Assembly: GCA_964016885.1 (NCBI GenBank)
Contig: OZ024742.1
Location: 354,082,001-354,146,000 of the forward strand
DNA: 64,000 nt
Direction: 5' to 3'
From: Eledone cirrhosa
Taxonomy: Eukaryota
In this document: one piece after another, positions 1 to 27,187 of the stretch
Numbering within the stretch: the first letter of the stretch is position 1
Layout of the letters: the number at the start of each line of letters is the position of its first letter
The notes under the pieces: generated by a model
Told to the model about the DNA's origin: nothing
Databases searched by the model: none
What the model saw: the letters and a program-made list of their open reading frames with translations, nothing else
Translations under genes and position numbers: made by a program

Positions 1-448
1 TTCATTTTGGGTGAGCTCATTTCGATATCACGAGATAATTTATTTTTTTCTTTTGTTTCTGTTGTCGCTGTGGTGGTGGCTTCAACACCTGCACTTGGTA
101 ATGGCGCGAAATGAATGTCTGCCTGAGACAAATTTAAAATATTGCTACTGCTTATATTTTTAGTTTTGGCAAACGTAGAAATATTTACAATGGTGGTGTC
201 GGTGTGAGGTGTTAGTTTGTGAGGAAGATGTGACCCTGAGTCGTCCATGGTTTTTTCAAAGAAAATGTTTTGTTTGATAATTATAAAAGTTTAAATTTTG
301 GGCTCAAGGCCGCAATCTTTTTGAGTCTCCTTTTCAGATAACAATGTATGTGCACGTATATACAGTTAACAATAACATTTTTCCATAAATGGCAATTTTA
401 AACAACTTTGCGGAGCTCACGATGATACGATTTACTACGTAGGTCGCC
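1..448 (-). mobile_element. Tx1-clade LINE family A, 5' end (5'UTR and start of ORF1); continues beyond the window start
   Basis: Collinear with about 15455-15904, sharing the same 5' terminus GGCGACCTACGTAG on the minus strand next to (ATT)n. Confidence 0.85.
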
Positions 449-508
449 AATAATAATAATAATAATAATAATATTAATAATAATAAAAATATAAATAATA
501 ATAATAAT

Positions 509-607
509 AATTGTTTCTCCTTGTTGGTACAATGCCAGCAATTAACTATGTGCGTTACTGGTACTTTATTTTATAACCCCTGTAATGGTGAGAGGGAAAG
601 CTACCTC
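509..607 (-). mobile_element. tRNA-derived SINE, diverged 5'-truncated copy
   Basis: Matches the 3' half of the SINE at 634-823 (AAATAAAGTACCAGT...GCTGGC...AGAAACAATT). Confidence 0.7.
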
Positions 608-633
608 AGAAGAAGAAGAAGAAGAATTTAATA

Positions 634-823
634 ATTATTTCTACTTTTGGCACAAGGCCAGCAATTATCCCAGTGCATTACTGGTACTTTATTTTATCGA
701 GCCCGTAAGGATGAAAGGCAAAGTTAACCTCGGCGGGATTTGAACTCAGATCATACAGTGCCATAATTATATGCTGCAAAGCATGTCGGGCGACCCTCTA
801 CCGATACTGCCAATCTACCGCCC
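634..823 (-). mobile_element. Full-length tRNA-derived SINE with 16-bp TSD
   Basis: Minus strand has A box TGGCAGTATCGG, B box GAGTTCAAATCC and tail CCTTGTGCCAAAAGTAGAAA. GAAGAAGAATTTAATA is duplicated at 618-633 and 824-839. Confidence 0.9.
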
Positions 824-2401
824 GAAGAAGAATTTAATATTACAGTATGGGAAGAAAGTAGAAAAGTTAAACCATAACTGGATTGTAAACAAGATCAACA
901 ACGGCAAAGGCGAAGAGGTATAGTGAGAGTTATTGAAAAACGCAAAGTAGCATAGAATGTTTAATATTGAAGAAGAACGTGTTTTAAATTTCAAAAGAAA
1001 TCTAATTTCAACAGGTGAATGCTCGGAGATTACGATATTTGGAATGGAAAATCGATTAAAACAATTCAAAATAAAACAATTTGAAAAGATAACCCCAGTA
1101 TTTCCAAGGGTTTAATGGTCAAACCAATAAAATAACAAAATAAATCTAGCAATGAAAAAAACAGAAATATCCCTGGAGAAATATGGGAAGTAGAAACATA
1201 TAAGAAATAATTTCATCCAGAGAATATAACAACAAACTATATGATCCTAAAAAATGAATAGAAGAAGATGCAACTGAAAATTACTGTTTAGATTAAATTC
1301 CAAAATGTTTGGTTAAAACACATACAAGACCTTTGCGAAAGAGTACAGCTACACAACTACATCCGAGCTACTTGAAATACACGCAAGGTTTTAGTTGTAC
1401 AAGAACAGAGTGCATGAGTGACGGTGTCGGTGAAATCCTGGTCTCACAAATATTTAACATATACAGGTCTCACTCCTTTGCTCCGATCTCAGTGTTTTCC
1501 ACTTTGATCATGATGAACTCAAACTTGTTTTTGAAAGTCCTCTTTCTCATCGCGTCCACAAGAGTGTCAGCTACAAACTGTGGCTAGTTTTGGGCCTGCA
1601 GCGGTGTTCCAGCAGGGGACATATCAGGAGGTGCTGCGTAGTCTGTGGTATTAATATCTAGAGGAAAAGAATCGCAAAAAATAATGGAAATGCATTCGTT
1701 ATGTTTATATCGAAAACAAATTATATTCGTTTCGATTTGTTTCAAGCAAAGAGCTTCGTTAGGCTTTGTTCTAGCGGTGACAGGGACAAACAAGTGGCAA
1801 CAATATTGTTTCGGAGTTGTTGCCATTTGTTAAGATTGTATATCTCTCTGTGAATCCTAGTACAAAAGGATGATGATGGTTATTTAAAAGACTTAGCGTT
1901 TGAAGATGGTTGCTTGCAAACGAATCAAATATCCTTACTCGATATAAATCTTACGAATGCGTTTATGTATCCGCTATGTTAGAGCGGATACATAGATAAT
2001 GGAAGTGATTACGACTTCATGACATTCGGGATGTTCTGTGTTACATTTAGGCAGGTTATATGACTATCAAACAACAAAATATATTGTTTCCACTAAATGT
2101 GATCAGACTCCCTTTCATAATGTTCCACGTGGGAAATATGTAGTACTTATTACTCTTGAAAGAAGTAGTAGGCAATGATGATGATGATACTAATTATATA
2201 ATAATAATAACAATAATAATAATCATAATAATAATAATAATAATAATAATAAAGGGAAGAAGACGCACGAGGTGACGGAGGTCATGAAATCGCTCCCGTA
2301 AGTTTTGAATGTTTAACATATTTAAACCATTTGTGAAATAACAACTCTTAGTACAAAAGCTACGTAAAGCACCCGGCTTGAGCCCCAAAAAATTCGGACC
2401 C

Positions 2402-3669
2402 AAAATATATTGTTATAAGGCTCAAATATTCAAATATTCAACTTTGTATTGTACACTGTATATCCCCCCCCCAAAAAAAAATGGCTATAAATGGAAGAAG
2501 AACCCCTCCCCTCCTCTCCTCTGGCTACACTATATAGGACAGCTAAACTCACCAACACCAGAAACTAGATACACCACCCACCCCATCATATGTGTACACT
2601 AAACACAACAGCCAGATAACGACACATTTTCACCTTCACCGCCACCGCTCATTACGGCCATCATTAGCACCACTATCCCATCACCGCCGCCACCACCCCT
2701 TGACTCCGCTACAGCACCATCACTACAGTAATACGGTCACATCACCGCCACCACTGCCTCGGTATCGACATCACCACCACCACTGTCTCAGTATCGCTAA
2801 CGCCGCCAGTCTCCCACTTCCCTGCTGGCTGCTACTCCCACATTATAGAATTCCTACTACTAACAAAGAGGAAGGCATCAAAATATATAGATAGACCCAA
2901 AAGAAAAAAGAAAAAACAAACAACAAAACCAAAGCAGCACAGCAACAACAGCAAAAAACGAGAAAAACAAACAGAGAAAAACAAAAACAAAAAAAAGAAA
3001 CCCCAAAAACGTAAAGAAAATATATTGTTATAAGGCTCAAAACGTAAAGAAAATATATTGTTATAAGGCTCAAATATTCAAATATTCAACTTTGTACTGT
3101 ACACTGTATATCCCCCCCCCCCAAAAAAAATGGCTATATATGGAAGAAGAACCCCTCCCCTCCTCTCCTCTGGCTACACTATATAGGACAGCTAAACTCA
3201 CCAACACCAGAAACTAGATACACCACCCACCCCATCATCTGTGTACACTAAACACAACAGCCAGATAACGACACATTTTCACCTTCACCGCCACCGCTCA
3301 CTACGGCCATCATTACCACCACTATCCCAGCACCGCCGCCACCACCCCTTGACTCCGCTACAGCACCATCACTACAGTAATACGGTCACATCACCGCCAC
3401 CACTGCCTCGGTATCGACATCACCACCACCACTGTCTCAGTATCGCTAACGCCGCCAGTCTCCCACTTCCCTGCTGGCTGCTACTCCCACATTATAGAAT
3501 TCCTACTACTAACAAAGAGGAAGGCTTCAAAATATATAGATAGACCCAAAAGAAAAAAGAAAAAACAAACAACAAAACCAAAGCAGCACAGCAACAACAG
3601 CAAAAAACGAGAAAAACAAACAGAGAAAAACAAAAACAAAAAAAAGAAACCCCAAAAACGTAAAGAAAA
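2402..3669 (+). repeat. Near-identical tandem duplication (offset 649 bp) in the Dong 5'UTR, with a 33-bp repeat at the junction
   Basis: ORFs 2592-2894 and 3241-3543 are almost identical. AAAACGTAAAGAAAATATATTGTTATAAGGCTC occurs at 3006 and 3039. Confidence 0.95.
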
Positions 3670-3973
3670 TAAGAATGAAGAGAGAAGCAGGCGGACGGAC
3701 AGAGAAGAGGGGGGAAAAAGTAAAACTTAAAAAACTAAAACTAAGTCAGACATTCGAACACTACATTACAATGAAACTTATGCTTATTCATTTCTGGGGC
3801 CCTTTCTGCCTGTGTGTTTGTTTGTTTATGTGTGTTCGTATACAGCGTGGTGATAATGCCACACAAGGGCCAAGTGGGATGGCGGACCCACAGATGGCTA
3901 TGTAAACATACATTCGCCAATCCTCGATAAGAGTGTTTAAATATCGAACATAAACAGTTCGAATAACGGTGAA

Positions 3974-6900
3974 ATGGAGACTAGAACGTCATGTGACAGA
4001 CTCTCACCCAACAGGTGCCCCCTGGCTCAGCAGCAGGAACCTGACTGTCAACCAAATACTGCTGATGTTGGAGGAAGGAGAAGAAGGAAAGGGGCCAGAA
4101 CCAACTGGACGAAAGAATTGAATAGAACTGTTATGCAATGCTACCTGAAAAGTAACCCCAAGGAGAGGAGCTACAGGAGACGGATGCATAACATCTGGAA
4201 CGAGATTGGTTTATTTAAATTAGATGAACAAAAATTGGCCGGGCAGGCTCGGGTAATAAGAACTAATGGGTGGATAAGCGAGCTGGAACTGGAGGAACTG
4301 AGCAGAGAGAATGGCTTGGAGATGGCGGGTGTAGTATGCCAGACAAGCGAGCCGGTGGGAAATGAAGGTGAGGAGGTCCTGAGAACGGAGGAACCACCCG
4401 AAGCAGACAATGATCTGAGTACTGAGATAAATAATACCTGGAACAGAGATACGGCCACTGAGGAGATGAATGCTGACGGGCTAGGACAAGATTCGGTTGA
4501 CATCCTAAATTTAGTGGTAGATGAATTGAACAATGATAGTGGGAGACCTATGAACCTAAGATTTGTAGACAGGAAAAAGTTAAAAGAAACAACAGCTAAG
4601 GTAAACAAAGTCATCCCATACCTTGAGGCGAGGAGCCTTCACCAGTGCAACAATATCCTCAGAGCAACAGCAAATACGGTGAGGAAACTACTTGGTATAA
4701 AAGCGAGAGGAAACAACAGACAAGAAAGAGCAGAGCCGTGGCGGAAGAAGCGACTGAGTGGGCAAATCGGGGAAATGAGAAATGACATAGGAAAGCTTGA
4801 GTCACTACTGAATGGGACACTAAAAAACATAGGCACTAAAAATAGACTGGAAATAAAATACAAAACTAGGAGTAAAAAGCTAAATATTATCATAGAGGAA
4901 TTGAAGCAACGCATTGTAGCAAAGAGTGCAAAAATCAGGCGATACGAGAACAGAGTCAGTCAGTATAAACAGAACCGCATGTTCGACAACAACCAGAAGA
5001 TGCTGTTTGGACAGCTTGAGGGCAAAGAAAGAGGCAACGACTTGATCCCTGGGGCGGAGCAAACTAAAACATTCTGGAGAGGAATATGGGAGCAGGATGT
5101 TAGACACAATGCCCAGGCAGGGTGGATTGAGACAGTACAGAGGGAGATCGGTGAGCAGGCACAGCAACAGACTGATTTGAGTATCACAGTTGAAACTCTT
5201 AAGGGACAAGCCAAAAAACTAACCAACTGTAAATCGCCAGGCCCAGATGGTGTGCAGGTGTATTGGATTAAACATCTAACATCCCTCCACCCGAAGCTGA
5301 CGGCCATGTTCAATGACTGCTTGGTGTCGGGTGAGGTGCCAGAGTGGTTGACAAAAGGTACCACAGTTCTGATAATGAAATACCGAATCAAGGGTAATGA
5401 TGCTACCAACTATAGACCTATCACATGTCTGCCCGTAATGTGGAAACTGTTGACGAGTATTGTGTCTGAGGAAATCTACCATCACCTCCACACAAACAAC
5501 TTGTTGCCGGACGAACAGAAAGGATGCCGAAAGAAGTCACGTGGTACAAAGGACCAGTTGCTTATTGATAAGATGGTAATGGGGAATTGCAGGAGGAGAC
5601 ACACTGATCTTGCCATGGGATGGATAGACTACAGAAAGGCATTTGACATGGTGCCTCATTCCTGGATCACCAAAAGCCTGGAGATCTTCAGGGTGGCGGA
5701 TAACATCAGACAGTTGCTAGGCAGGAGTATGGGGCCCTGGGAGACAGAGTTGACATCAACTGGAGTATCCTTGGGAAGCGTGAAGATCAAGAGAGGTATC
5801 TTCCAGGGAGATAGCCTGTCCCCTCTGTTGTTTGTCCTTGCCCTGATGCCCTTGACCATTATGCTGCGAAAAGTGAGAGCAGGATACAAGTTGGGAAGGG
5901 GAGAGCTTACCATCAATCACCTCCTCTTCATGGACGATCTTAAGCTCTTCGGGAAAAGTGAGAAGGAGTTGGATGTGCTTGTTGACACTGTCCGTATTTT
6001 CAGCAGTGATATATGTATGCAGTTTGGTATTGGTAAATGTGGAGTCATTGTGATGAAGAGGGGTAGGTTGAGCAGAAGTAACGGCATCCAGATACCAACA
6101 GGTGAGATGATAAAGGAAATTGACTCTGAGGAAGGATACAAGTATTTGGGCGTTCTGGAGGCTGATGGCATAAAGAACAAAAAAATGAAGGAATTGTTAA
6201 GAACTGAATACATTCGGAGAGTAAGGAGCGTATTGAAGTCACATCTGAACAGCAGAAATGCCATAAGCGCAGTAAATTCCCGAGCTGTGTCTATTATTAG
6301 GTACAGTGCGGGAATTCTGAGATGGAATGTTGCTGAACAGAAAGAAATGGATAGGAAGACTAGGAAGCTATTGACTATCTACAACATGTTCCACAAGAGG
6401 AGTGATGTCGATAGACTCTACCTAAGGAGATCTGAAGGTGGAAGAGGTCTTATCAGCATAGAGGACTGTGTTCAGATGGAGAAAAACAACCTATACAAAT
6501 ACGTGACCTATAGTAAGGAGCCAATGCTCAGAGCTGTACTGAAGGAGGGGACAGTAGGCCAGGGGATGTCCAGGGAGGAAATAACATCAAGGAGGAAGAG
6601 CAGCCTTAAGGGAAAACCCCTTCATAGTACCTTCTTTGAGAAAACTGAATTTAGAGATCCACAGACATGGAACTGGTTGAGAAGAGGAGACCTCAAAAAG
6701 GCTACAGAAGGAATGCTAATGGCTGCGCAGGAGCAGGCCCTCAAAACGAAGTGGTTGAAGCACCATATCTACAAGGAGGAGGCCAACCCACTGTGCAGGA
6801 TCTGTGGAGAGAGAGAGGAGACTGTGGCTCACATTGTGTCCGAGTGTAAACACCTAGCCCAGACCCACTATAAGGGCTGGAGACACGATGTGATGGGCAG

Positions 6901-7366
6901 GGTGATCCACTGGCACCTGTGCAAAGTAAACAATCTACCACATTCTAAGAAATGGTATGAGCATAGGCCAGAGGCGGTGATGGAGAACAATCAGGTGAAG
7001 GTGCTGTGGGATTTTAGGATACAGACGGACAAAAAACTGGAACACAATAGACCTGACCTGGTGGTTGTGGACAAAGAAAAAAGATCGTGCCTGATTGTGG
7101 ATGTGGCCTGCCCGTTCGACACGAGAGTGCAAGAGAAGGAGAGGGAGAAAATTAACCGATACCAGGACCTAAAGTGGGAGGTGAAAAGGATTTGGAACTG
7201 CCATGAAGTCAAAGTGATCCCGATTGTCATAGGCGCACTGGGGACTATCTCCAAAAGTTTCCAGGGATGGTTAAAGAAAATCGGCCCCTTCACGCTTTTT
7301 GGAACGCTTCAAAAGGCATGCTTGCTTGGAACAGCAAGAACCCTCCGATACGTCCTGAATATCTGA
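3974..7366 (+). CDS. R4/Dong polyprotein: reverse transcriptase, CCHC zinc knuckle and restriction-like endonuclease (1130 aa, uninterrupted)
   Basis: RT motifs YRPITCL, WIDYRKAFD, GIFQGDSLSPLLF, HLLFMDDLK, YKYLG; CRICG..HIVSEC; RLE motifs RHD, RPDLV..D, DVACP, EK..RY. Confidence 0.95.
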   Translation: METRTSCDRLSPNRCPLAQQQEPDCQPNTADVGGRRRRKGARTNWTKELNRTVMQCYLKSNPKERSYRRRMHNIWNEIGLFKLDEQKLAGQARVIRTNGWISELELEELSRENGLEMAGVVCQTSEPVGNEGEEVLRTEEPPEADNDLSTEINNTWNRDTATEEMNADGLGQDSVDILNLVVDELNNDSGRPMNLRFVDRKKLKETTAKVNKVIPYLEARSLHQCNNILRATANTVRKLLGIKARGNNRQERAEPWRKKRLSGQIGEMRNDIGKLESLLNGTLKNIGTKNRLEIKYKTRSKKLNIIIEELKQRIVAKSAKIRRYENRVSQYKQNRMFDNNQKMLFGQLEGKERGNDLIPGAEQTKTFWRGIWEQDVRHNAQAGWIETVQREIGEQAQQQTDLSITVETLKGQAKKLTNCKSPGPDGVQVYWIKHLTSLHPKLTAMFNDCLVSGEVPEWLTKGTTVLIMKYRIKGNDATNYRPITCLPVMWKLLTSIVSEEIYHHLHTNNLLPDEQKGCRKKSRGTKDQLLIDKMVMGNCRRRHTDLAMGWIDYRKAFDMVPHSWITKSLEIFRVADNIRQLLGRSMGPWETELTSTGVSLGSVKIKRGIFQGDSLSPLLFVLALMPLTIMLRKVRAGYKLGRGELTINHLLFMDDLKLFGKSEKELDVLVDTVRIFSSDICMQFGIGKCGVIVMKRGRLSRSNGIQIPTGEMIKEIDSEEGYKYLGVLEADGIKNKKMKELLRTEYIRRVRSVLKSHLNSRNAISAVNSRAVSIIRYSAGILRWNVAEQKEMDRKTRKLLTIYNMFHKRSDVDRLYLRRSEGGRGLISIEDCVQMEKNNLYKYVTYSKEPMLRAVLKEGTVGQGMSREEITSRRKSSLKGKPLHSTFFEKTEFRDPQTWNWLRRGDLKKATEGMLMAAQEQALKTKWLKHHIYKEEANPLCRICGEREETVAHIVSECKHLAQTHYKGWRHDVMGRVIHWHLCKVNNLPHSKKWYEHRPEAVMENNQVKVLWDFRIQTDKKLEHNRPDLVVVDKEKRSCLIVDVACPFDTRVQEKEREKINRYQDLKWEVKRIWNCHEVKVIPIVIGALGTISKSFQGWLKKIGPFTLFGTLQKACLLGTARTLRYVLNI

Positions 7367-7456
7367 GGCTGCAGGTAGTGGCTTGATATTCAATCCAACG
7401 GACTTTCCAGTTAACCAACATCAATGACTGAGATTCAAGGAATAACAATAGCAATG

Positions 7457-7517
<61 letters not shown>

Positions 7518-9287
7518 GGGAAGAAGACGCACGTGGTGGTAGAAGGTCATGAAATCGCTCCCGTAAGTTTTTGATTTTTAACATATTTAAATCAATTGTG
7601 AAATAACAATTCTTAGTACAAATGATGCATAAATCATCGAATAAAGTCTCATAAAATTTCGGATCCATAATATATTGTTATATCGCTCAAATATTCAATT
7701 TTGTATTATATATTTTATATTCAAAAAAGAAAATGGTTATAAATGGAAGAAAACCCCCTCTGTCTACACTATATAGAACAGCCAAATAACAGCAATTTCA
7801 CGAACACCAGAAACTTGATACACCACCTACCCCATCACCCCGCTGTGTACACTAAATATAACAGCCAGATAACGGCAATTTCACCACCACCACCACAAAA
7901 TGTGTAATTCCAATATTAAGAAAAATATGTCAACACATTTTAAACATACGCGTCTAACCGCATAGATTCACCGACCAAACAAACAAACTACAGTCTATTC
8001 AACAAAAGTCAGTAACGACAACGCCATGACTACAGTCACCGCCGCCACCACCCCATCCATCATTGCTACCACTATCCCATCACTTCCGCCACCACTCCTT
8101 CATTGCTACCACCGCTATTCCCCCATTGCCTTCTGTTAACTTACGAAAGGGGAAGGTGGCGGTATCACTAGACAATATTAATAAACAATATTAATATTTA
8201 ATTTTGGATCAGGAATATTAGAGTCGAAAAGGAGGAAATGGCAAAATGACTAAATAGTTAGCTAAATAGCTAAATAGCTAAGTGGACAGAGAAGATAATT
8301 TCACCACCAAAACCACCACCACTACCACGCTAAAAACTCTGGTCAAGTTGCCTCAACTTCAACACCATTACTACAGTGCTACGATCACATCACTACTCCA
8401 ACTACCTCCTGCTAAGTACTACTAGCACAGCACCACCACCACCACCACTGCCTCATTATCACTACCGCCGCTATTCTCTCCCACTATCTCCCGCTAACAC
8501 ATGCATCCTAATGTCCCCACCAAAAGAGGAAGGCATCAACATATATAACTAGACCGAATTGATGACCCGGTCAAAAAATAAAAAAAAAAAAAAAATCAAA
8601 ATCAAAGCAGCACAGCAACAACGATAAACGTAAATAAAAATGAAAAATGAAGAGAAAAACAAACAGACGGACAGAGAAGGGAAGGGAAAAACTTAGTCAG
8701 ACAGTCAAACATTACATTACAATGAAACTTATGTTTATTCTTTTGGGGTTTTTTTTTTGCCTGTTTGTTTGTTTGTTTATTTATGTTCGTCTACAGCGTG
8801 ATAGTGCCACACAAAAATCACCGGGAGTGATGAAATCACCCGTGGTTATGTAACCATACATTCACCAATCCTCGATATGAGTGTTTAAATGTCGAACCTA
8901 AACAGTTCGAATAACGGTGAAGTGGAGACTAGAATGTCATGTGACAGACTCTCACCCAGCAGGTACTCCCTGGCTCAGCAGCAGGGACCGGCTGTCAACC
9001 AAATACTGCTGGTGCCGGTGGAAGAAGAAGAAGGAAATGGACCAGAACCAACTGGACGAAAGAATTGAATAGAATTGTTATGCAATGTTACCTGAAGAGT
9101 GACCCCAAGGAGAAAGGCTATAGGAAACGAATGCATAACATCTGGAACAAAATTGGTCTATTTAAATTAGATGAACAAAAATTGGCCGGGCAGGCTCGGG
9201 TAATAAGAACTAATGGGTGGATAAGCGAGCTGGAACTGGAGGAACTGAGCAGAGAGATTAGCTTGGAAATGGAGATAAATGCAGCTG
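7518..9287 (+). mobile_element. Second Dong copy, head-to-tail, 3'-truncated (5'UTR and about 120 codons)
   Basis: Same 5' terminus as 2254. 8922-9275 is homologous to the ORF N-terminus, with the start changed to GTG and a frameshift. It ends in (TAA)n. Confidence 0.9.
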
Positions 9288-9324
9288 TAATAATAATAAT
9301 AATAATAAAAATAATGATAATAAT

Positions 9325-10248
9325 GATTTCTTTATTAACCACAAGGGTTAACATAAAGTAGAGATTAAGGACAGTACAGGACAATACAGGACGGAAAAAT
9401 TGTGGATTTCTGCGTGTAAAAAAACAAAAACAGAGGATGTAACAAAAAATAACAATGAAAAATTCCCCAATAGGGGGGATACTTCCGAGGGCCATTTGTG
9501 GAGAAAGCTCATTAAAAGGTCACAGTGACCCTGACCACCAGGGCAAGTGCCCTCTCCCAGCTGTCCACCTTTAATTTACAAACACCTACTCAGAGTAGGC
9601 CCATTCACTCGGGCCATACTTGCTTCTCTCACCCATCTTTCAACAAAATGCTGGGAAGAGAGCACTTCCCTCTCTACCCTGATTTTCCTCTTCAAATGAA
9701 ATTTGAAAAAGTTAATCAGGGCATCACCGAAAAGGGAAGTGCTCGTCTTCAGCCTTTTCAAACGTGTCCACCATACTATCTCTTTCGCCATGGCCACAGG
9801 ATAGATAAAAACTGCCTGCCCTTCCCTTCTAAAGGAAGATGGCGGAGCAATTCTCACGATGGACTCTGCTGATAGCTGGATCCGTCCTACACGTGACAGC
9901 AGGTGTTCGACATAAACCCACAAGTCAACAATGCTCGGAAACTGGACGAGTGAGTGCAGGACGGTTTCGTCGCGCTGCACCCATCTCGGACATGCCCGGC
10001 TGACGGCACCTCCATGCCTGTAGAGTTTATCCCGAACTGACAAATCTCCTCTGTAGCACTGCCAGGCCATGGATTTCTGGAAGTTGTCCATAGGCCCCGG
10101 CCCGAAAGTCCTTCCGAAGAGATTGGCTAGTCGATTTTCGTCGACGCCTAGAGTTTCTCCAAGTACGTCGTCACTCTTCCCCTCCACTAATCCTTTATAG
10201 AACGCCGAGGTGGAGTTTCCACAGATCACATTGCCGGATTGGTCGAGG
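9325..10248 (-). mobile_element. Tx1 family A, 5'-truncated copy with intact 3' end
   Basis: ORF 9576-10229 is the ORF2 C-terminus (FQKSMAWQCYRG, CPR..ETVLHSLVQ). The 3'UTR ends CCTTGTGGTTAATAAAGAAATC followed by (ATT)n. Confidence 0.9.
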
Positions 10249-10264
10249 AAATAATAATAATAAT

Positions 10265-10309
10265 AATTGTTTCTACTTTTGACACAAGGCCAGCAATTAC
10301 CCAGTGCAT
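10265..10309 (-). mobile_element. SINE 3' tail only (45 nt) within (TAA)n
   Basis: TTGTTTCTACTTTTGACACAAGGCCAGCAATTACCCAGTGCA matches the tail of the SINE at 634-823. Confidence 0.85.
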
Positions 10310-10317
10310 AATAATAA

Positions 10318-10645
10318 TGGCTCCTTAACTATGTCATTGTAAAGTTGGGCTAACAGCTCATGAGACTCTGTGAAGGCATTTATCCAAATATTTGGTATAT
10401 TGTCTTCTCCTGGGGATTTCCATTTGCTAGTCTTTCTAAGAGCCAAACGAAACTGTTCAACTGATATATGTTCCCATATTTGTCCCTCAAGGTAAGCTTT
10501 ATCTTTCATTTGTCTGTATATCCATGTGACATGTATATTATGAACTTTTTCTTTGGCCCAGATCTTTTCCCAGAGTTCTTGCACTTCCTCCTTTGGTGGT
10601 ATTGATTTAGCAGTTAGTGTTGACTTGCCAATTTTTTTGTAGAAA
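10318..10645 (-). pseudogene. Dong/R4-like ORF fragment (pre-RT region) of a second family, inverted
   Basis: QELWEKIWAKEKVHN..WKSPGEDNIPNIWI aligns to FWRGIWEQDVRHN..KSPGPDGVQVYWI of the 3974 ORF. Confidence 0.8.
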
Positions 10646-10649
10646 AGAA

Positions 10650-11344
10650 ATCACTGGAAGCTGGAGAAGTTAATATTAATTGTGGAATTGTTCAGGGTGA
10701 CTCTTTAGCACCGCTTTTATTCTGCAACGCACTTATACCATTAAGTAAAATGCTCAATAAAACAAAACATGCATATAAAGTCAATGACAAAACCATTAAT
10801 CACTTGTTCTACATGGATGACCTGAAACTATTTGCAAAAAATGATAAACAATTGCAAAGGCTATTATCCATTGTGGAACAGTTCAGTGATGACATTAAAA
10901 TGGAGTTTGGACTAGATAAATGCGCCAAAGCAGCGTTCACCAGAGGAAAGCTGCTGAAAAGTTCAGACATTAATCTTGATCGGAGGAGTGTGATAAGAGA
11001 ACTTGATCAAGAGGAAACTTACAAATATCTAGGTATTTGTGAAGGAGACGGAATCAAGCACTCGACAATGAGGGAAAGGATATGGAAGGAATGTTACCGC
11101 AGTGTAAGAGCAATCTTAAGAACGGAATTGAATGCAAGGAATAGGATCGATGACATAAACACGCTTGCCATACCAGTAGTAACCTAGTTACAATGTCATC
11201 AACTGGTCAAGCACAGAGATCCGTAGGCTCGATACAAAAATTCGAAAATTCTTAACCATGCACAGAATGCATCACCCTAAGGCAGATATAGATAGAATAT
11301 ATCTCCCTAGGAAAGAAGGAGGACGTGGGTTAATCCAGTTAGAT
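10650..11344 (+). pseudogene. Dong/R4-like RT core fragment of the same second family
   Basis: GIVQGDSLAPLLF, HLFYMDDLKLF, YKYLG, HPKADIDRIYLPRKEGGRGL; frameshift near 11187. Confidence 0.9.
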
Positions 11345-14300
11345 ATGCTGGGAAAGAGCACTTCCCTCTCTACCCTGATATTCCTTTTCAAATGAAACTT
11401 GAAAAAGTTAATTGGCATCACCGAAGAGGTAAGTGTTCGTCTTCAGCCCTTTCACACGTGTCCACCATACTTTCTCTTTCGCCATAGCCACCAGACAGAT
11501 AAAAATTGCCTGCCCTTCCCGGCTAAAGGAAGATGGCGGGGCAATCCTCACGATGAACTCAGCTGATAGCTGGAGCCGTCCTACACGTGAAAGCAGGTGT
11601 TCGACATAAACCCACAAGTCAGCAATGCTCGGACACTGGACGAGTGCGTGAAAGACGGTTTCGTCGCTCTGTGCGCAACTCGGACATGCCCGGCTGACGG
11701 CACCTCCATGCATTAGAGTTTATCCCGAACTGGCAGAGCTCCTCGGTAGCACTGCCAGGCCAGGGATTTCTGGAAGTTGTCCATAGGCCCACGCCCGAAA
11801 GTCCTTCCAAAGAGATTAGCGAGTTGATTTTCGTCGACGCCTAGTTTTTCTCCAAGTATGTCGTCGCTCTTCCCCTCCACTAATCCCCTATAGAACGCAA
11901 AGGTGGTGTTTCCACCGATCACATTGCGCGATTGGTTGAGGGCTGTGAGCGCCTGAAGACATTCCAGTCTCCAAGCACTCCGTCTCGGTCTTTGCTTGAC
12001 TCAGGACTGCAGCTTCGTCAAGGAGACGAGCTGGGGAAAGACGCGTCTAGCAAACGGCGACCACACCTGATCACCGTCGAGGAAGAGGTGGAGATGTCGT
12101 AGCCTGAGCGCGTGTCTACGCATCATCAGCCACGGCATGCCCAGCCTTCCACGTAGCGGGTGTTGACAGCAGATGGACCGCCTGACCATCGGAGCGCATC
12201 CCTTCCACAAAAAGTGAAAGAGCAAACGCTCAAGCGCAGTCAGTCGGGGCTTGAGGCAAGGTACGATGGTCAGGTGATAGTAGATGACGGACGTGAGGTA
12301 CGCTTTAGCCACCTCCGCTCGACCTTTCAGGGATAGCTTCCTCTCCGCCCATTTCTGGGTGAGAGAAGCCACCCTGCTCGTCACCTCGTTCCAGTGTTTG
12401 TCCGTCTGGAGGTCCGGACCGAACCAGACCCCTAGCAATTTAACCGATCCGACCGTCCAGCGTCCGACGACGCTGTTGGACGGCATGGACTTGCCTCTCC
12501 AGGTGCCGAGTTGCAGGCCCACTGACTTTTCCTGGTTGATCATTGCTCCTGTCACCGCTTCGTATTCTCTTAGTGGAGTGCCGATCACCTCGATGTGTTT
12601 GGCGTTCGACACCACCACGGTACCTTCGTCCGCATATGCTGACACGGATCTTCCGCATCCTAGTTCGCGCGGGACCCCCCTCAACGTCTCCAGTTTGTGC
12701 AGTAATGACTCGAGAGTCAATACGTACAAGAGGGACGAGAGGGGACATTCTTGGCGGACCGAGCGCATGATATTGAACGGTTTCGAAAGGTGACCGTTCA
12801 CTCTCACCACAGAGCAGATTTAGCTGTGCATGGCAGCGATCCAGCATCTTAAGACGGGCCCAAAGCCAGCCGCCCTCAGGGCTGCCGCTAGGTAACGATG
12901 GTTGACCCTATCGAAAGCTTTCGACTGATCTAAATTGATCTAGGACACACCCGTGCCAGGTTCCATAGCTACCCTCTCTGCGGTGTATCGCATGAGGTGG
13001 AGGTTGTGGTGGATGGATCTGTCGGGAATGGCGTCTGCGCCTCTCCCACCAGACAAAAAACGACAAGCGCCAACCTCTTTGCTAGCACCTTGGCCAAAAT
13101 CTTGAACTCTGTGTTTAGCAGGGTTATAGGCCTGAAAGTATCGATGTTATCCCCCTTGTTCGGATCCTTTCTCAGCAGCGCCACAGCTCCTCGGCTCACA
13201 GAGCTGGGAATTCACCCATTCTGTTGCCAGTTGCAATAGACTCTACCAAGAGGCCCCCGAACAAGTCTGGCATCTGTACGTAAAGTTAATAGTGCAGACC
13301 GTCTAAACCAGGCGGTTTACCCCTGGCGCAGCCAGTCATTGCCTCCCGTACTTCAGCGGATGTTATCGGCTTTTCGCAACACTCCGCCTCAGTGGCCCAG
13401 AGTCGCGGCAATCCGTCGAGGTAGACACTAAAGTCCATCCCTTGTTCCGGCCAGCCGCTGGCCCCGAACAGCTGTGCGAAGCGTCGCTGAAAAGCTTCAC
13501 ACATTTTCCCGGGATTGTGTAGCAGGCGCCCTTCGTGGTACAACAAAGACCGGATCGCTTTGTTGCCACGACACGTCTCCGCCACTCGGGCCCATTGAAC
13601 GGCTTTCGTCCCCTCGTGTCTGAGAGCACGCACCCTAGATCTGACAACGCAGCCTTAGTGCTTAGCATTGAAGTATTGCCAGGGGCCAATTTCGCCGCAA
13701 GTACGTCGGTCGCGATGCCTTTGCGTCTAATTTTCGTCTAATTTTTTAACTAATTCTCCCTCTGCTCTATTTTTCTCCATTGATAAAGCCTTACTAAACC
13801 TAATGGACTCTATTCTAATTGCTCTTTTCAGAGCAAACCACCACTTGTTGTTGACGATGGACCCCGTCAACACCCGCTTAACTAGTTCGCTAATCCGGTC
13901 TCTGTAGCCCTTGCGCGCTGGCAAGGACGCGTTTAGCTTCCAGTAGCCGGTTCCTCGTCTCTGAAGCCTATCTAAGTCAAGCACACAATCACGAATTTGT
14001 GGTCCGTGTAGCTGTTGTGTAGTCCTTTTCTATGATGCTGGTGTTGTGTTGGATGTAGTGTAATAATTGGTTGTTGTTCAAAGTTAATGCTGTGTAGTGT
14101 GTATCGTTTTGGTTGTTTTGTTTTGTTTGCGTTTGTTGTGGGTTTGTTTCTGTTTCGGTTTTTGATGACTTTTGTGGTGTTGGTGATGGCGGTGTTGCGG
14201 TTAATGATGGTCATGGTGTTGGTGTTTGTGGTGATGGGGTTGGTGATGCTGGTGTGGATGGTGGCATATCTGTCCTAACTTTTTTGTTTGATAGTTTATT

Positions 14301-15904
14301 TGTTTCCCTCTGTATTTTGTTTTTGGAGGGGGAAGGAAGAGAATTTTCTCTTTTTTGGTTTCTTTTTTTCGTTTTTCCTGACACCGTTTCCTACTCCTCG
14401 TCGTCACAATCTGTCTCCAGTTGCGATAAGCCGGGGAGTGGAAAGTCCTCCACAGGCGCTGGTTTTGGCTGTGGCGTGGTGGATGGTGTAGGCGCTGTTG
14501 CTAGTTCTGGCGCGTCGGGTGGTGGTTGTGTTGGTTTTGCTACTGTTGCTGGGGTTGTTGCTGTTACAGTTGTTGCTTCTACAGTTGTTGCTGCCATATC
14601 TGCTGCTGGTGGTGTTGATGGTTGTGTCACTGGGGTGGGTAAGAGAGGTGGCCTCAAACTTTTAGCCTGAGGGCAGAAAGCACTTAGGTGGGTTGCTTCA
14701 CCACAAATATCACACCTAGGCTTTCTGCCCTCGACGATTACGGTGAGGTGGCTGCTGTCAGTGAGGTCTATTACCTCTGGGATCTCCTCAATGCTTTTAT
14801 GGTCCGCTTGAATCAGGAGATCCATTCCATATCCAGACCAGTTCACCTGCCTTTCATTCGCTATCTCGATTATCTTGCTGTTGGCCTCGATGCCGGCGAG
14901 GACGGCTGCTATTAGCCATGGAATTTCGATGGCCGGTGGAACGTGGGTCACCCTGATCTTCACGAGTCTCTGGCCACAATAGCTTGGGACGAGTGTGAAG
15001 TCGTCACTTCTTAATGGCGCCATGGAGTGTTCTCTGGCCTCCTGTGGTGTTTCAAAGAACACGTCTACGGTTCCATCTTTCTGCCCACGTCTGATGTGGG
15101 TTTTTTTGCCCACACATGTCCCGAAGCTCTTTGCATTTGGGACTCGGATGCCCGTTCTAGTCGGCGCGATTTTATGTTAATTGTCCGATAAAACACGGTG
15201 AATAGGCGACGATGCTCCGTTTTATTAGTTTGGGGGTGAGGCTGACCCTGTACCCATCTTTCTTTAACATTCTTTTGGCTTCTTCTAATTCCTTCTGAGT
15301 TACCTGGATCGCTTCGCACATTTTTGCTACTCTTGCAAAAGACAGGGTAGTTTTTTTAATTTCATTGTTGCTGTTGTTGTTATCGTTATTTTTGTTATTG
15401 TTAAATTTTGTTTCAGTTGTGGTGGTGGCGTCAGTAGTGTTCGGTGTGGAAGAGTTCATTTTGGTTGAATTCATTTCGATATCACGAGTTAATTTATTTT
15501 TTTCTTTTGTTTCTGTTGTCGCTGTAGTGGTGGTGGGGGTGGCGGCTTTAACACCTGCCGTCATTGGTAATTTAAAATAATGCTACTGCTTATATTTTTA
15601 ATGTTGGCAAACGTAGTAATATTTACAATGGTGGTGTCGGTGCGAAGTGTTAGTTTGTGAGGAAGGTGTGAATCTGAGTCGGCCATGATTTTTCAAAGAA
15701 ACATTTTTTTTGTTTGGTAATTATAAAAAGTTTAAATTTTGGGCTCAAGGCCCCAATCTTTTTGAGTCTCCTTTTGAGAAATCAATGTATGTGCACTTAT
15801 ATACAGTTATCAATAAAATGTTTCCATAAATGGCAATTTTAAACAACTGAAAATAACAAACCTTTGTGGAGTTCGCGATGATGCGATTTACTACGTAGGT
15901 CGCC
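11345..15904 (-). mobile_element. Tx1 family A, decayed copy with 5' end, most of the APE domain deleted and the 3' end lost
   Basis: ORF1 pieces at 15564-14391 with knuckle CDICGEATHLSAFC. A junction near 14012 joins ORF1 to YTDHK..GYWKLN. RT pieces FRPITLLN and SAYADE. Multiple stops and frameshifts. Confidence 0.9.
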
Positions 15905-15952
15905 AATAATAATAATAATAATAACAACAACAACAACAGCAATAATAACAAT

Positions 15953-16142
15953 AATTGTTTCTACTTTTGGCACAAGGCTAGCAATAACCCAGTGTATTAC
16001 TGGTACTTTATGTTATCGACCCCATAAGTAAGAAAGGCAATGTTAACCTCGGCGGGATTTGAACTCAGAATGGCAAGGGCCGTAACTCTATGTGTCAAAG
16101 CATGACGTCTGACCCTCTACCGATACTGCCAATCCACCGCCC
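15953..16142 (-). mobile_element. Full-length tRNA-derived SINE
   Basis: Same A box, B box and tail as 634-823. Confidence 0.9.
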
Positions 16143-16956: not shown

Positions 16957-16996
16957 TATCTATCTCTCTATCTATCTATCTATTTATCTATCTATC
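16957..16996 (+). repeat. (TATC)n microsatellite, the 5' flank of the Tx1-B pair
   Basis: Seen directly; TATC repeats recur at 20831-20855 and 26677-26692. Confidence 0.9.
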
Positions 16997-19900
16997 CCCC
17001 ACCCTAATGGAAATTGCGCAGCCCGATACCCGGGACGCAGAGAGGTAAGTGCCTTTTCTCTTCACCACCAACAGGGCTATGCTAAGAGTAGGCTGTTTAA
17101 ATGCGCGTGGCCTGGGCTCAACTTGGAAGCAAGCAATGCTTCTAAATGACCTCAGGTCACAACGTATAGATGTGATGGTTATTTGCGAGGCCCGGATCAG
17201 CAACGTGCGACAGCTGGCCCCCACCTTTGATGACTTTGAGATGCACGCATCTCTCTGTCAGCCCGGAGGTGTACGGTGGAGTTGTCGTTCTGCTGCAAAA
17301 ACATCTGGGTCTCGCAACACAGATGGTACATTTGGACCCGGAGGGTCGACTAGTGGTTCTGGACCTTGGCAGTGGTAAAGGCGGAGCGTTTAGGTTGGTA
17401 GCCGCCTACGGCCCTTTCGGGTCAATGCGGCCGGACTTCTTCCATCGTCTGGAGACTTTTCTGGGGACGTCCCGCTCCTTGCTATTAGTGGGGGACTGGA
17501 ATGGTATCCTAGATGCACGCTGGGACTACGTAGGGGCCTGCCCCGATAGAGAGGGGTGTAATAGCCTCAAAGGGTTAATCGGTCGATTTGACCTGGCCGA
17601 TAGATATCGACTAGATTTTCCGACTGCGCCAACCTGGACTTGGGCAAATCGTAGCAGATCATCTAGGTCGTACCTAGATAGGTTCTTAGTTAGAATTAAG
17701 GATAAGGACTTTTTAAGTTGTCCAAAAATGCGCATGGTTGGCTATTCAGACCACAAATTAGTGACCTGCATGGTCAACCTTGACAGAACTCATAGAGAGG
17801 GCCCCGGTTACTGGAAGCTCAACTTGCCCTTGCCGGCAAGTAGAGCGTACAGGAATCGGATTAGTACGTTAGTTAAGGAACGGTTGACTGGAGCGATCGT
17901 CAACAGCAGGTGGTGGGTATCTCTAAAGAGAGAGATTAGAGTAGTCTCGATAGAATTTAGTAAGGTTCTAGCTGCGGATAGGAATAGGAAGGAAAGGGAG
18001 CTAATAGATAGAGTAGAAGAGGCAATTAGAAGCGGCGACGTGGCCAGAGTGCTAGCGTCGAGAACGGCTTTGAGCCAGTTTTTCGACGCGAAGCACGAAG
18101 GCTGCGTTGTCCGAAGTAAAATACGTGCTCTAGGGAACGAAGGGACCAAAGCTGTTAGCTGGGCCCGCGTGACAGAGGCCAACAGTGGAACTAAATCCAC
18201 CATCCGGTCTTTGCGAGACCTGGATGGACGGGCGATTCTTGAGCCTAAGCAGATGTGTGAGGCCTTTCAAAGGCACTTTGCTCGACTGTTCGGGAGGGGC
18301 GGGGAGCCGGTTGGGAACGTGGACTTCGGTCCATACATCGACGGCCTGCCGCGCCTCTCGGACAGGGAGGCGAAGTCCTGCGAGGAGCCGATTTCGGCCG
18401 CTGAGATAGAGGACGTGCTGAGCCAATGCGGCAAACGCAAATCCCCGGGTCTCGATGGTCTTCCTTACGAATTATATCTAGCTATGCCGGACTTGTTCCC
18501 CGATCTCCTCGAGGCGGTCTACTGCAACTGGCAACAGAACGGGAGAATTCCCTGTACTGTGACCAAGGGCGTAGTCACGCTAGTGGGGAAGGGCGAGAAC
18601 AAGGGGGACGAAATAAGTAACTTCAGGCCCATAACTCTGCTAAATACAGAGTTACAGATTTTGGCCAAGGTGCTAGCAAAGAGGTTGGCGCTTGTCGTGG
18701 GCAACCTGGTGGGAGATGCGCAGACATGCGCTATCCCGTCCAGGTCCATCCATGACAACCTCCACCTCATGCGATACATCATAGAGAGGGTTGGGAACGA
18801 ACCCGTCTTTGGTGGGGCTCTGATCAACTTGGATCAATCTAAGGCGTTGGATTGGGTCGACCATGGTTACCTGGATGCGGTGCTAGCGGCGGCAGGCTTC
18901 GGACCCGTTTTCAGGGGCTGGATCACTGCTATGCACAGCAGCCGCATCTGCTCTAGGGTCAAGGTGAACGGCTACCTCTCGGAGCCGTTCAAAATCTCGC
19001 GGTCCATCCGACAAGGGTGCCCTCTCTCCTCCCTTCTGTATGTGTTGACTCTCGAGCCACTACTTCGGAAGTTGGAGTTGTTGCAGGGCATCCCTTTGGA
19101 ACCGGGATTGCGGAAAGCGGTGTCGGCCTACGCCGATGACGTGACAGTAATGGTGTCGACGGCCTCCGAAATCGAGGCGGTCGGCACCTTACTGGAGGAG
19201 TACGAAAAGTTCACAGGGGCTAAGCTGAACCGGGACAAGTCGATCGGTTTGCAACTCGGCACGTGGAGGGGCAGACCGATGCCCTCCGATGGCGTCGTCG
19301 GACGCTGGACGGAGGGCCCGGTGAAGTTGCTCGGGGACTGGTTCGGACCGGACCTCCAGGTGGAGAAAAACTGGGCGGAGGTTACGAACAGGGTGTTTGC
19401 ACTGACCCAGAAGTGGGCCAGTTGCAAACTATCCCTGAAAGGTCGGGCGGAGGTGGCGAACACCTACATAGCGTCCGTCATCTACTACCGCCTGACCGTA
19501 GTGCCCTGCCCAAGGGAAACCCTCACGAAGATGGAGCGCGCGCTCTTCCAATTCCTTTGGAAGAGGCGGGCTCCTATGGTGAGGAGATCCATCTGCTGTC
19601 AACACCCTTCGAAAGGAGGGCTGGGGATGCCGTGGCTAATGATGCGTAAACACGCATTAAGGCTACGGCACCTCTACGTATTCCTCACCGGACAACCGGT
19701 GTGGGCCTCGTTTGTGAGACGAACCTTTCCCAGACTCGTCTCACTCACCGAGCTGCAATCCTGGGTCAAGCAAAGACCGAGAAAACTGGGCGCCTGGCAC
19801 ACTGAGTGTGCCCAGGCGCTCACCGCCCTCTGGCAGGCGGATCCGGTTATCAGTGGAGACTCCACCGCAACATTCTATAGAGGGCTGGTACGCAGCAGGT

Positions 19901-20830
19901 GCGACGACGCCCTCGGAGAAGCCCTAGACATGGAGGAGGACGAACTGGCCAGCCTGTTCGGTAGGACATTCAGCCCGGGACCTATGGACAACTTCCAGAA
20001 GTCCCTGGCCTGGCAGTGCTACCGAGGAGCTTTACCGGTTCGAGAAAGGCTCTACAGACACGGGCGCCCGGGTAGCGACCCCGCCAAAAATATCTGTCCC
20101 AGATGCGTGTGCGACGAGGAAACCGTTGCACACGCATTGGTACACTGCTCGGGCGTAGCCGATCTGTGGGGCTATGTCGAACAACTGCTGTCAAGGGTGG
20201 GACCGATCCGGTTGACCACCGAGTCTATTGTAATGATCAAGCCGCCTTCCCCCTTCAAAGATGAAGCAGAGGCGGTGTTTCTGTGCGTAATAGCCATGGC
20301 GAAAGAGGTTGTATGGTGGACGCGTCTGAAAGGACTGAGGTCAGGCACCTTTTTCTCTGGCCAACAACTGGTCCGTTTCTTCCGATATCATTTCGGAAGA
20401 AGGATCAGGATGGAGAGAGAGGTGCTGCACCCCAGTCGTTTTTATGAAAGGTGGGTGAAAGTGGCGAGAATGGCCCGTGTGAATGGGCCTTCTCTTTACA
20501 TGAGCCTGTAGGTGGAAAATAGGAAGGAACGAAGGAGCACCCCCTCTCTGTGCTCCTGAGGAAAAGGGTTGCACACTTTTTTCGGGGGTGTGTGCGACCC
20601 CCCAAGGCGCCTCCTCTCTATTGAGGATTTTGTTATAAATTTTATTTTTTGTTATATTTTATAACAAAATCCTCTATTGAGGATTTTGTTATAATTCTAT
20701 TTTTTGTTATATTTTATTTTATTTTTATATATTGTTATTGCCTCCTCCCTATTGAGGACGCCTTGTTTTGTAAACTCCCCCCATTGTACTTGTCCCACTT
20801 TTGATGCCCTTGTGGCAAATAAAAGAAACA
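16997..20830 (+). mobile_element. Tx1-clade LINE B1, 5'-truncated within the last codons of ORF1
   Basis: Starts with MEIAQPDTRDAER*, homologous to the B2 ORF1 end. Full ORF2 and a 3'UTR with AATAAA, followed by (TATC)n. Confidence 0.9.
17079..20511 (+). pseudogene. Tx1-B1 ORF2 (APE endonuclease, RT, CCHC) with one frameshift near 17270
   Basis: CLNARGL and CEA are in one frame; GDWN, YLDR, SDHK, RQGCPLS, YADD and CPRC..HALVHC are in the other. Confidence 0.9.
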
Positions 20831-21090
20831 TATCTATCTATCTATCTATATATCTCCCACAATCTAGCTGTCGTCTGTTCTACAGTGTGGATGTCATTCA
20901 CTTCGCACAGAAGTTTTGTTCAAATTTATTGAGGAAATTTTGTGAGTTCAAACTTAATTTTGATACAATTGTGTAGCTTGACCCTCCGTCTGAACTGTCA
21001 GGCGGTGGGTCAGCTCATCTTTACCCCTCCTAGAGGTGAAAAACCTGTTTTAAAAAATGTTGTGTAAAAAATTTCAATCGTCTAACAGAA

Positions 21091-22991: not shown

Positions 22992-23024
22992 GTCTCTACA
23001 ATCTCCTTTGGCTCTGCCGCCCAC

Positions 23025-26462: not shown

Positions 26463-27187
26463 GTAAAGAAGTAAAGGAGAGGGTAGCACCTTCTCCATGT
26501 GCTCCCCGGGCAAAGGATTGCACACTTTTTCGGGGGTGTGTGCAACCCCCATCACGTCTCCTCCCTTTTGAGATTATTTTCGATTATTTTCATGTTACAC
26601 CCTTTTTACTCGATTATATGTAAACTCCCCCTTTGTATTTGTCCCTTCTTTTTATGCCTTTATGGTAAATATAGAAATCTATCTATATATCTCCCTCTCT
26701 CTATATATATATATATACCGTTTATCCTGATCGCTTGAAATGAAATACCGATAACGCGTAAGAAAATCCAAGAAGAAAAAAGATGAAACGAATAGCCAAA
26801 TTAGGACTGAATATATTGAATTGGATAAAGGAGGCACTAACATAATTATTAATCGCTACTATTATAGTCAGGTTATGAATTTAGTGTAACGTGTGCACCG
26901 GATATTGTGCAGACATCACACAATAAAACATGAGAGTGTCACAAATAAAGGTATCATGAACGAAATAAACGCTGTATAATAGGAGAATGAACTAATCTAG
27001 CGATACTATAGAAGGAAAAATGAAACAAACCCTCTCAACACTAATAGTAATACAAATAAGACATAAGATTGACAGAATGTCGTACAAATATTTATTTTAC
27101 CGGGTTGGTGGAAAACACATGCATATTGAAAGTTACTTATAACTTTTGATTTAGCGTGACACTTGGGACAATACCATTGACCTCACG

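Follow-up and report, generated by a model that had tools for sequence, protein, structure and literature searches.

A SINE with a tRNA-like head and the L1/Tx1-clade LINEs of Eledone cirrhosa appear to carry one 3'-terminal hairpin module

The window analysed here, a stretch of 64,000 nucleotides from the octopod Eledone cirrhosa (NCBI GenBank assembly GCA_964016885.1, contig OZ024742.1, positions 354,082,001 to 354,146,000 of the forward strand), holds copies of a short interspersed nuclear element (SINE) among long interspersed nuclear elements (LINEs) of the Tx1 type. As judged from their sequences, the SINE and the Tx1/L1-clade LINEs of this genome carry the same 3'-terminal module, and the product of open reading frame 2 (ORF2) of those lineages that occupy (ATT)n repeats (Tx1-A, Tx1-C and Tx1-D) probably binds this module and thereby mobilises the SINE in trans, with insertion at ATTAT sites. 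A first-pass annotation of the window had proposed that the SINE is the non-autonomous partner of a microsatellite-targeting Tx1 LINE and that SINE tails in turn provide landing pads for Tx1-A and Dong; the pairing with the clade was supported, and neither Tx1-A as the specific partner nor the landing pads were.

The common 3' end and its carriers

In addition to the lineages Tx1-A, Tx1-B1 and Tx1-B2 of the window, sampling of the genome recovered C, D and B3-B5, which makes eight Tx1/L1-clade lineages in all. Three SINE ends and nine Tx1 ends (12 rows) were aligned without internal gaps, in agreement with the collinear 3' termini read at first pass, the four quoted examples of which are present as written (Tx1-A 9325-9349, minus strand; B1, ending at 20830; B2, ending at 26679; SINE 15956-15980, minus strand). 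The module comprises a predicted stem of 3-4 bp around a CTTGT loop, followed by 12-13 nt ending in GAAANN. The two arms of the stem read TGGC/GCCA in the SINE, AACC/GGTT in A, GGCC/GGCC in C, TGCC/GGCA in B1 and TGCC/GGTA in B2; loop exceptions are TTTAT in B2 and CCTGT in two B lineages, and AATAAA, which directly follows the stem in the LINEs, is missing there from the SINE. Stem cells were paired in 83% of cases, compared with 15-54% in slid controls, and two-sided changes affect three of the four stem pairs, with the closing C-G invariant. The covariation score was reached by none of 500 shuffles, a figure that is no probability because the rows are related. The module is kept although the families differ in the 3' untranslated region (UTR) that precedes it. 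This pattern of a varying stem and a retained loop resembles that of the L2 LINEs, in which the stem is exchangeable and the loop specific according to the available excerpt of PMC4176376, and by analogy the same mode of recognition may apply to this clade.

The last 30 nt of the SINE were further compared with LINE tails by anchored alignment under one fixed scoring scheme, which was applied after the alignment had been seen. All nine Tx1 tails were significant (p≤0.023), with z values of 5.3 for B1, 3.2-4.3 for B2-B5, 3.9 for C, 3.8 for D and 2.2 for A (two copies), while eight of nine non-Tx1 tails (two Dong, four RTE and three CR1-like) gave non-significant values of -1.4 to 1.4. The SINE tail is thus matched better by Tx1/L1-clade tails, in register and with a compensated hairpin, than by any non-Tx1 tail sampled, in keeping with the proposed pairing; Tx1-A is not supported as the specific partner, its tail being the weakest match within the Tx1 group, below B1, C and D. 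Since B1 is the closest in sequence to the SINE end, the tail may predate the split between A, B and C. A scan for the hairpin in 219 loci and the window yielded 274 matches, which were SINE or Tx1 ends save for a few unlinked singletons. As to whether the hairpin is a general L1/Tx1 feature, an initial metagenome scan found none, and 80 metagenome L1/Tx1 loci, which are 25-40% identical and many of which may lack the 3' end, gave one weak match.

The ORF2 of the Tx1 LINEs comprises the Pfam domains Exo_endo_phos, RVT_1 and zf-RVT, corresponding to an apurinic/apyrimidinic endonuclease (APE), a reverse transcriptase (RT) and a C-terminal zinc motif. Its best match in the PDB is human L1 ORF2p (E 3e-49 over endonuclease plus RT), followed at a distance by R2 (5e-19), and a quick tree, which took in RTE, CR1 and Dong rows and no named Tx1, Keno, Kibi or Koshi reference, grouped the Tx1 ORF2 rows apart from these with a Shimodaira-Hasegawa-like approximate likelihood-ratio (SH-aLRT) support of 99. 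On these grounds the LINEs are assigned to the L1 superclade (L1/Tx1). The label Tx1, as opposed to L1, is tentative and is used on account of target specificity and of a CCHC-like motif in ORF1, a trait of Tx1 elements; homolog searches returned no named Tx1 reference. The closest named ORF2 homolog is a protein from Argonauta hians (66%), and L1-Tx1 appears in octopus annotations (excerpts of PMC13282606 and PMC8967140).

A full-length Tx1-A spans ~5.87 kb (5,870 nt) and is represented genome-wide by 1,687 exact 5' ends and 9,314 exact 3' ends, with an intact ORF2 of 1,152 aa in 4/40 copies. Tx1-C has 1,655 exact ends, and its 1,150-aa ORF2 was intact in 2/2 copies. ORF2 identity among A, C, B1 and B2 amounts to 65-82%, and the tails of A, C, D and B3-B5 lie after ORF2 C-termini (ORF2 at most 1.5 kb away in 16/30 loci). 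The setting of A, C and D is (ATT)n and that of the B lineages (TATC)n, into which, and not into (ATT)n, the ends of B1 and B2 run; the clade has thus changed its target repeat yet kept the 3' hairpin module.

Two further features of these LINEs were recorded. At G000:C1:423367689-423420217, about ten Tx1-C copies are arrayed head to tail, with a 15-bp (ATT)5 spacer at nine joints. Within the 5' UTR of Tx1-A, a second hairpin is found at positions ~147-167 (window 15737-15756, minus strand; L220-L259), with a GGGC/GCCC stem and a CTTGT or CTTGA loop; 11 nt of it are identical to the SINE hairpin, exactly so in 21/40 copies, which may be due to chance (BLAST E 1.3). Tx1-C has a hairpin with a TTTT loop at the same place.

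The SINE itself is a short, non-coding, dispersed element of 187 nt and high copy number, with 5'-truncated copies, 121 3' ends in an evenly spaced sample of 0.99 Mb and 141,051 exact 26-nt tails genome-wide. By its sequence it is tRNA-derived with a degenerate head, which aligns at D- and T-loop stretches to 16 tRNA-like loci of the genome (z 1.3-4.0, compared with -1.5 to 0.5 for the 3' half of the SINE) and carries an insertion of ~24 nt relative to them; neither ARAGORN nor Rfam returned a tRNA match in this degenerate head, and no donor tRNA was identified. Most of the top genomic tRNA matches (L452, L454-L462) are copies of a single tRNA-like repeat whose anticodon varies; this may be a further SINE or a family of tRNA pseudogenes. 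The first 95 nt of the SINE (L122:8000-8100; window 16048-16142) were predicted, without a shuffle control, to form one long rod and not a cloverleaf. The same hairpin end occurs in another SINE group (L070:2927-2976, minus strand; L122:688-737), which is longer, includes an additional pyrimidine-rich stretch and accounted for 14 matches in the 0.99-Mb sample. A tandem array at ~13-300 of L007 (minus strand) is built of a 54-nt unit consisting of the last 41 nt of the SINE plus a target duplication.

Target sites, adjacency and age

Target duplications of at least 9 bp (9-22 bp, median 15 bp) were found at 101/163 SINE ends, compared with 6/163 after swapping of flanks; the 163 ends include some tandem copies, and the evenly spaced sample alone gave 54/102. 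The duplications start with ATTAT (positions 0-4, 83-93%), which is preceded by C or T at 78% of SINE sites (64% in the background). In 13/67 cases, the SINE end is followed by ATTATTTT, with TTT directly past ATTAT, against 4.3% in the background (p 5e-6), an excess compatible with RNA polymerase III (Pol III) transcripts that terminate in AUUAU and additional U's. For Tx1-C, spacers between tandem copies, measured by eye, were of 15 bp in ten cases (nine from one array), 18 bp in ten and longer in three, and the short copies L348, L355 and L365 have non-repeat duplications starting with ATTAT; these Tx1-C duplications rest on few copies, two of them full-length.

The SINE and the ATT-type Tx1 LINEs have a common ATTAT junction and a duplication length of ~15 bp but differ in their dependence on long tracts. 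At least four perfect ATT units precede 36/40 Tx1-A 5' ends, and ATT repeats precede 100/100 Tx1-C 5' ends among the matches listed, whereas a tract of at least four units on the 5' side was found for 4/119 SINEs, compared with 8.9% of background ATTAT sites. Past its end, the SINE has a median of 2 ATT units, compared with 2.5 in C and 9 in A. Microsatellite targeting, as originally claimed, thus holds for Tx1-A; the placement of the SINE into (ATT)n does not, as it uses ATTAT pentamers.

A SINE end lies at most 60 nt upstream of 86 of the 1,687 Tx1-A 5' ends (5.1%), ~20-fold above the random-position expectation of 0.26%. Ordinary (ATT)n tracts reach the same range (4-8%), with SINE tails at the ends of 11/156, 5/66, 2/47, 2/31 and 0/20 tracts of at least 3, 4, 5, 6 and 8 units, respectively (Fisher p 0.27-1.0), and the proposal that SINE tails are favoured landing pads for Tx1-A was rejected because adjacency is no higher than for such tracts generally. 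Far-side ATT repeats of at least three units accompany 20/30 SINEs adjoining Tx1-A (30 of the 86 adjacent cases) versus 14/119 SINEs elsewhere (p 4e-9), so that most adjacent SINEs sit inside a tract used by both elements, as exemplified by the 42-nt SINE at 10268. The SINE and Tx1-A meet through use of the same tracts, not through pads made by SINE tails. The upstream neighbour of 40 position-picked Tx1-A 5' ends was a Tx1 tail in 13 cases and a SINE tail in none, which understates the SINE rate, as the picks came from the first 100 listed, with seven SINE-adjacent ends, none of them among the 40; for 29 similarity-picked ends inspected by eye, SINE tails numbered five and Tx1 tails nine. The corresponding idea for Dong fared no better: a SINE tail was met at two of 12 Dong ends, a small sample taken as lying within the tract baseline of 8-14%.

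The three junctions on which the landing-pad idea had been built do exist, with spacers of 63, 19 and 51 nt (given roughly correctly as 15-60 nt), and constitute a local run; the one at 10248 is a 5'-truncation point (element position 4955) and not a 5' end. The three SINEs involved differ in length and divergence, as had been noted (Table 1). An origin of 448 and 15904 from one duplicated locus is not supported, given that the shared stretch stops with the SINE remnant and that the SINEs differ.

Median divergence was 6.0% for the SINE (n=73), with a youngest subgroup at 2.2% (n=15), 2.6% for Tx1-A (n=18) and 1.8% for Tx1-C (n=22), the samples being small and selection by exact tail having skewed the Tx1 sets towards young copies; the full A and C sets include older copies that are >10% diverged. 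The divergence ranges of the SINE and Tx1 overlap, which indicates concurrent activity. In the comparison of duplication lengths and ages that the first-pass annotation had suggested, the ATTAT junction, the length and the age range were common to the SINE and the ATT-type Tx1, unlike the dependence on long tracts.

Candidate partners of the SINE

Among the ATT-type lineages, whose ORF2 we regard as the probable agent of SINE mobilisation, the tails of C and D match the SINE better than that of A. ORF2 would bind the SINE hairpin as stringent L2 LINEs bind theirs, and its endonuclease would nick the bottom strand, upon which the ATAAT 3' end could pair with the AUUAU of the RNA and prime reverse transcription. 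A second nick ~15 bp further would then give rise to the target duplication. The looser site use of the SINE might result from its Pol III transcript having a short 3' end of AUUAU and U's, which would need only a short priming match; LINE RNAs would hold several AUU units past AAUAAA and so favour long tracts.

A wider proposition, which we put forward as possible rather than probable, is that an animal L1-superclade lineage still recognises a structured 3' handle and drives one of the most abundant SINEs of its genome, and that one enzyme produces two patterns because the length of the AUU tail, and not the endonuclease alone, sets stringency, with LINE RNA directed to (ATT)n and Pol III SINE RNA to any ATTAT genome-wide. 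If true, the probable source of a large SINE expansion in octopods would be identified, and a site-specific LINE would be seen to carry a passenger to places well outside the target that it uses itself. The literature leaves open whether early members of the L1 clade depended on a particular 3' structure before their recognition relaxed to poly(A) (excerpts of PMC3472496 and PMC4176376); with a 13-nt hairpin, an intact ORF2, natural stem variants and two target repeats, this animal L1/Tx1 lineage provides a ready test system.

Several observations weigh against mobilisation by the ATT-type lineages. Homology is limited to ~25 nt, and a BLASTN search with the full SINE found no 3' match in any of 12 LINE references. 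The stem is weak (approximately -4.8 kcal/mol for the last 32 nt), its outer pair is broken in 6/12 rows, and the compensatory changes amount to ~3-4 independent events, the rows being kin. The best sequence match, B1, sits in (TATC)n rather than ATT, and none of the sampled Tx1 families has the exact site use of the SINE, with tracts of at least four units at 36/40 full-length A copies and nearly all of 100 C copies among the matches listed, against the 4/119 of the SINE. Duplications were callable in 15/39 truncated A, 4/39 C and 3/10 D copies and were mostly pure ATT, automated calls on truncated Tx1 copies being poor because 5' boundaries were often misplaced. One non-Tx1 tail, CR1_3, was significant in the anchored alignment (z 3.1, p 0.002). 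Finally, LINE sampling encompassed ~1 Mb plus targeted loci, ~1.9 Mb in all, of a 3-Gb genome.

Some of these points would suit a tail captured from a Tx1 ancestor whose ORF2 still moves the SINE under relaxed recognition, with the AUU end alone being required and the hairpin left over as a relic. The short, weak stem with its often broken outer pair, the loop variant of B2 and the relaxation of mammalian and most plant L1s (excerpt of PMC3472496) are consistent with such a scenario, which we nevertheless deem unlikely: the G-C/C-G swap between the SINE and Tx1 and the A-U pairs of Tx1-A restore pairing, and the module persists across ORF2s as divergent as those described above while the upstream 3' UTRs differ. 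We give less credence still to a real partner among unsampled or extinct LINEs, with a longer matching tail and a secondary resemblance to Tx1. The small fraction of the genome covered and the lack, among sampled Tx1 families, of tract-independent site use at full length would allow for it, but a LINE that drove >140,000 copies, one subgroup of them at 2% divergence, would be expected to be both recent and plentiful, and the hairpin scan returned SINE or Tx1 ends almost throughout.

Two CR1-like families are each highly improbable as mobilisers. CR1_3 (L432) finishes in AAAAC after a similar TGGC...GCCA stem and has the anchored score in its favour, as well as the frequency of CR1-type partners among mollusc SINEs (excerpts of PMC11481361 and PMC4824008); its loop is of 4 nt, the match requires a 3-nt gap, and 6/6 ends show a 10-nt tail unit, which the SINE lacks, and then (TA)n, never ATTAT. 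CR1_2 (L439) is abundant and ends in (ATT)n on its sense strand, but terminal similarity is absent (z 0.4), and the duplications called at 8/17 truncated ends all lie at an internal ATT-linked 3' repeat, with 0/5 at independent truncations. Dong, RTE (four tails), CR1_1 and CR1_2 were rejected as partners for lack of a tail match; Dong tails consist of (AAT)n when read in sense, opposite in orientation to the SINE and Tx1, those of RTE consist of (GAT)n, (TG)n or (TA)n, and CR1_1 ends in a 5-nt unit, where the labels Dong, RTE and CR1 are our assumption from domain content and typical features of these clades. The (ATT)n-ending CR1-like family (L439:1259-1308, minus strand; L433-L449) often has its last 110 nt duplicated internally, and at L228 a Tx1-A copy is inserted in the ATT tract of that internal repeat, with 11 and 16 units on the two sides.

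Window layout and comparison with known systems

Positions 1-27,000 of the window constitute a nest of LINEs within microsatellites, made up of Tx1-A (minus strand), Tx1-B1 and B2 (plus strand), Dong-like elements and SINE copies (Table 1). Outside this nest, an (AT)n tract of ~705 units spans 42481-43897, and two diverged copies (89%) of a presumably Penelope-like element, labelled from sequence features with Pfam negative on the four ORFs tried, are found in inverted orientation at 57782-63894.

Table 1. Repeats and elements of the 64-kb window, numbered from its first letter.
Feature	Positions	Strand	Remarks
Tx1-A 5' fragment	3-448	-	first ~490 nt of element; 80% to full-length copy; runs past window start
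(AAT)21 tract, (ATT)n on minus strand	449-511		63-nt spacer
SINE, 5'-truncated (93-187)	512-607	-	96 nt; 81% to family majority sequence
SINE, full-length	636-823	-	93.5% to family majority
Dong/R4-like LINE (inferred label)	2252-7440	+	5' region duplicated; ORF 3941-7366 with RVT_1
(AAT)n tail of Dong/R4-like LINE	7441-7517	+	orientation opposite to SINE/Tx1 ATT tails
Second Dong family, short 3'-end fragment and (AAT)n tail	9273-9324	+	sequence match to other Dong2 ends; tract abutted by Tx1-A 3' end
Tx1-A, 5'-truncated (4955-5870)	9325-10248	-	16-bp duplication, one mismatch
Tx1-A 3' end	predicted hairpin 9337-9349; AATAAA 9331-9336; end 9325	-	
(AAT)6 tract	10249-10267		19-nt spacer
SINE 3' fragment (146-187)	10268-10309	-	42 nt; 98%; ATT repeats on both sides, inserted in tract
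Tx1-A, intact 5' end	11345-15904	-	3'-truncated at position 5555; ORFs broken
Degenerate (AAT/AAC)17 tract	15905-15955		51-nt spacer
SINE, full-length	15956-16142	-	187 nt; 91%; tRNA-like head with A-/B-box-like stretches, body, predicted tail hairpin 15968-15980
Tx1-B1, 5'-truncated	16996-20830	+	between (TATC)n tracts; ORF2 17176-20511 (APE, RT, zf-RVT); predicted hairpin 20805-20817
Tx1-B2, near full length	20856-26679	+	ORF1 21369-22991 (CCHC-like motif); ORF2 22992-26462 (APE, RT, zf-RVT)
Tx1-B2 predicted hairpin	26655-26667	+	variant loop
SINE copy (49-187)	28313-28452	+	89%; away from Tx1
SINE copy (7-187)	45819-45997	-	88%; away from Tx1

SINE/LINE pairs with a common tail are textbook knowledge, and the octopus SINEs OK, OR1 and OR2 were reportedly described as tRNA-derived by Ohshima and Okada in 1994; what is new, or at any rate rarely reported, is an animal L1/Tx1-clade LINE as the tail-sharing partner. 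Our literature search found no report of a SINE sharing its 3' tail with Tx1, and Repbase, closed papers or supplements may already hold one. Of the 58 pairs in the Ohshima 2012 survey, three involve SINEs with an L1 tail; these come from maize and Chlamydomonas, and none is from an animal (PMC3472496, PMC3747384; this and the comparisons that follow draw on excerpts of the cited papers), and neither 'Tx1' nor 'octopus' occurs in the pair table of the SINE/LINE review. Octopus repeat papers report L1-Tx1, Dong-R4 and abundant SINEs, with partners not named in the excerpted parts (PMC13282606, PMC8967140, PMC9115989), and Tx1 is not mentioned in PMC5786205 and PMC7245038.

The bivalve HCD SINEs are likewise tRNA-derived mollusc SINEs with LINE-derived tails, but their partners are CR1, CR1-Zenon, L2 and Nimb, unlike Tx1 here (PMC11481361, PMC4824008, PMC4758252). 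On the LINE side, Kibi, Koshi and the crocodilian Tx1 families are also APE-type elements that insert into microsatellites, their targets being (TC)n, (TTC)n and (TTCC/TTTC)n in place of (ATT)n and (TATC)n, as compared by description only (PMC4494074). The crocodilian SINEU was similarly inferred to be moved by a Tx1 element, Tx1-Mar, from a common target and age (Kojima 2015, PMC4494074), and SINEU-1 and SINEU-2 use this target more loosely than the LINE (23% and 13%), as does the SINE described here. The SINEU elements end in poly(A) and have small nuclear RNA heads, and for SINEU-1 that work as excerpted found no LINE with a matching 3' end; the Eledone SINE, in contrast, has a tRNA-like head and no poly(A), and the tail itself is shared with the LINE.

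In the stringent common-tail systems of eel (UnaSINE1/UnaL2) and zebrafish (ZfL2-1 and ZfL2-2), the SINE and the LINE also have in common a short 3' stem-loop, in which the stem is exchangeable and the loop conserved, and a short tandem repeat after it (PMC4176376). Those are L2-clade systems demonstrated by assay, whereas the present one belongs to the L1/Tx1 clade, shares ~25 nt, generates duplications of 9-22 bp and is predicted from sequence. The closest parallels within the L1 clade are ZmSINE2/3 with LINE1-1_ZM in maize and SINEX-3 with L1-1_CR in Chlamydomonas, in which a conserved 3' end is likewise common to an L1-clade LINE and a SINE (PMC3472496, PMC3747384). The maize pair has, as here, a hairpin with compensatory changes; both pairs are from green-plant lineages and share 50-80 nt, compared with the ~25 nt of the Eledone module.

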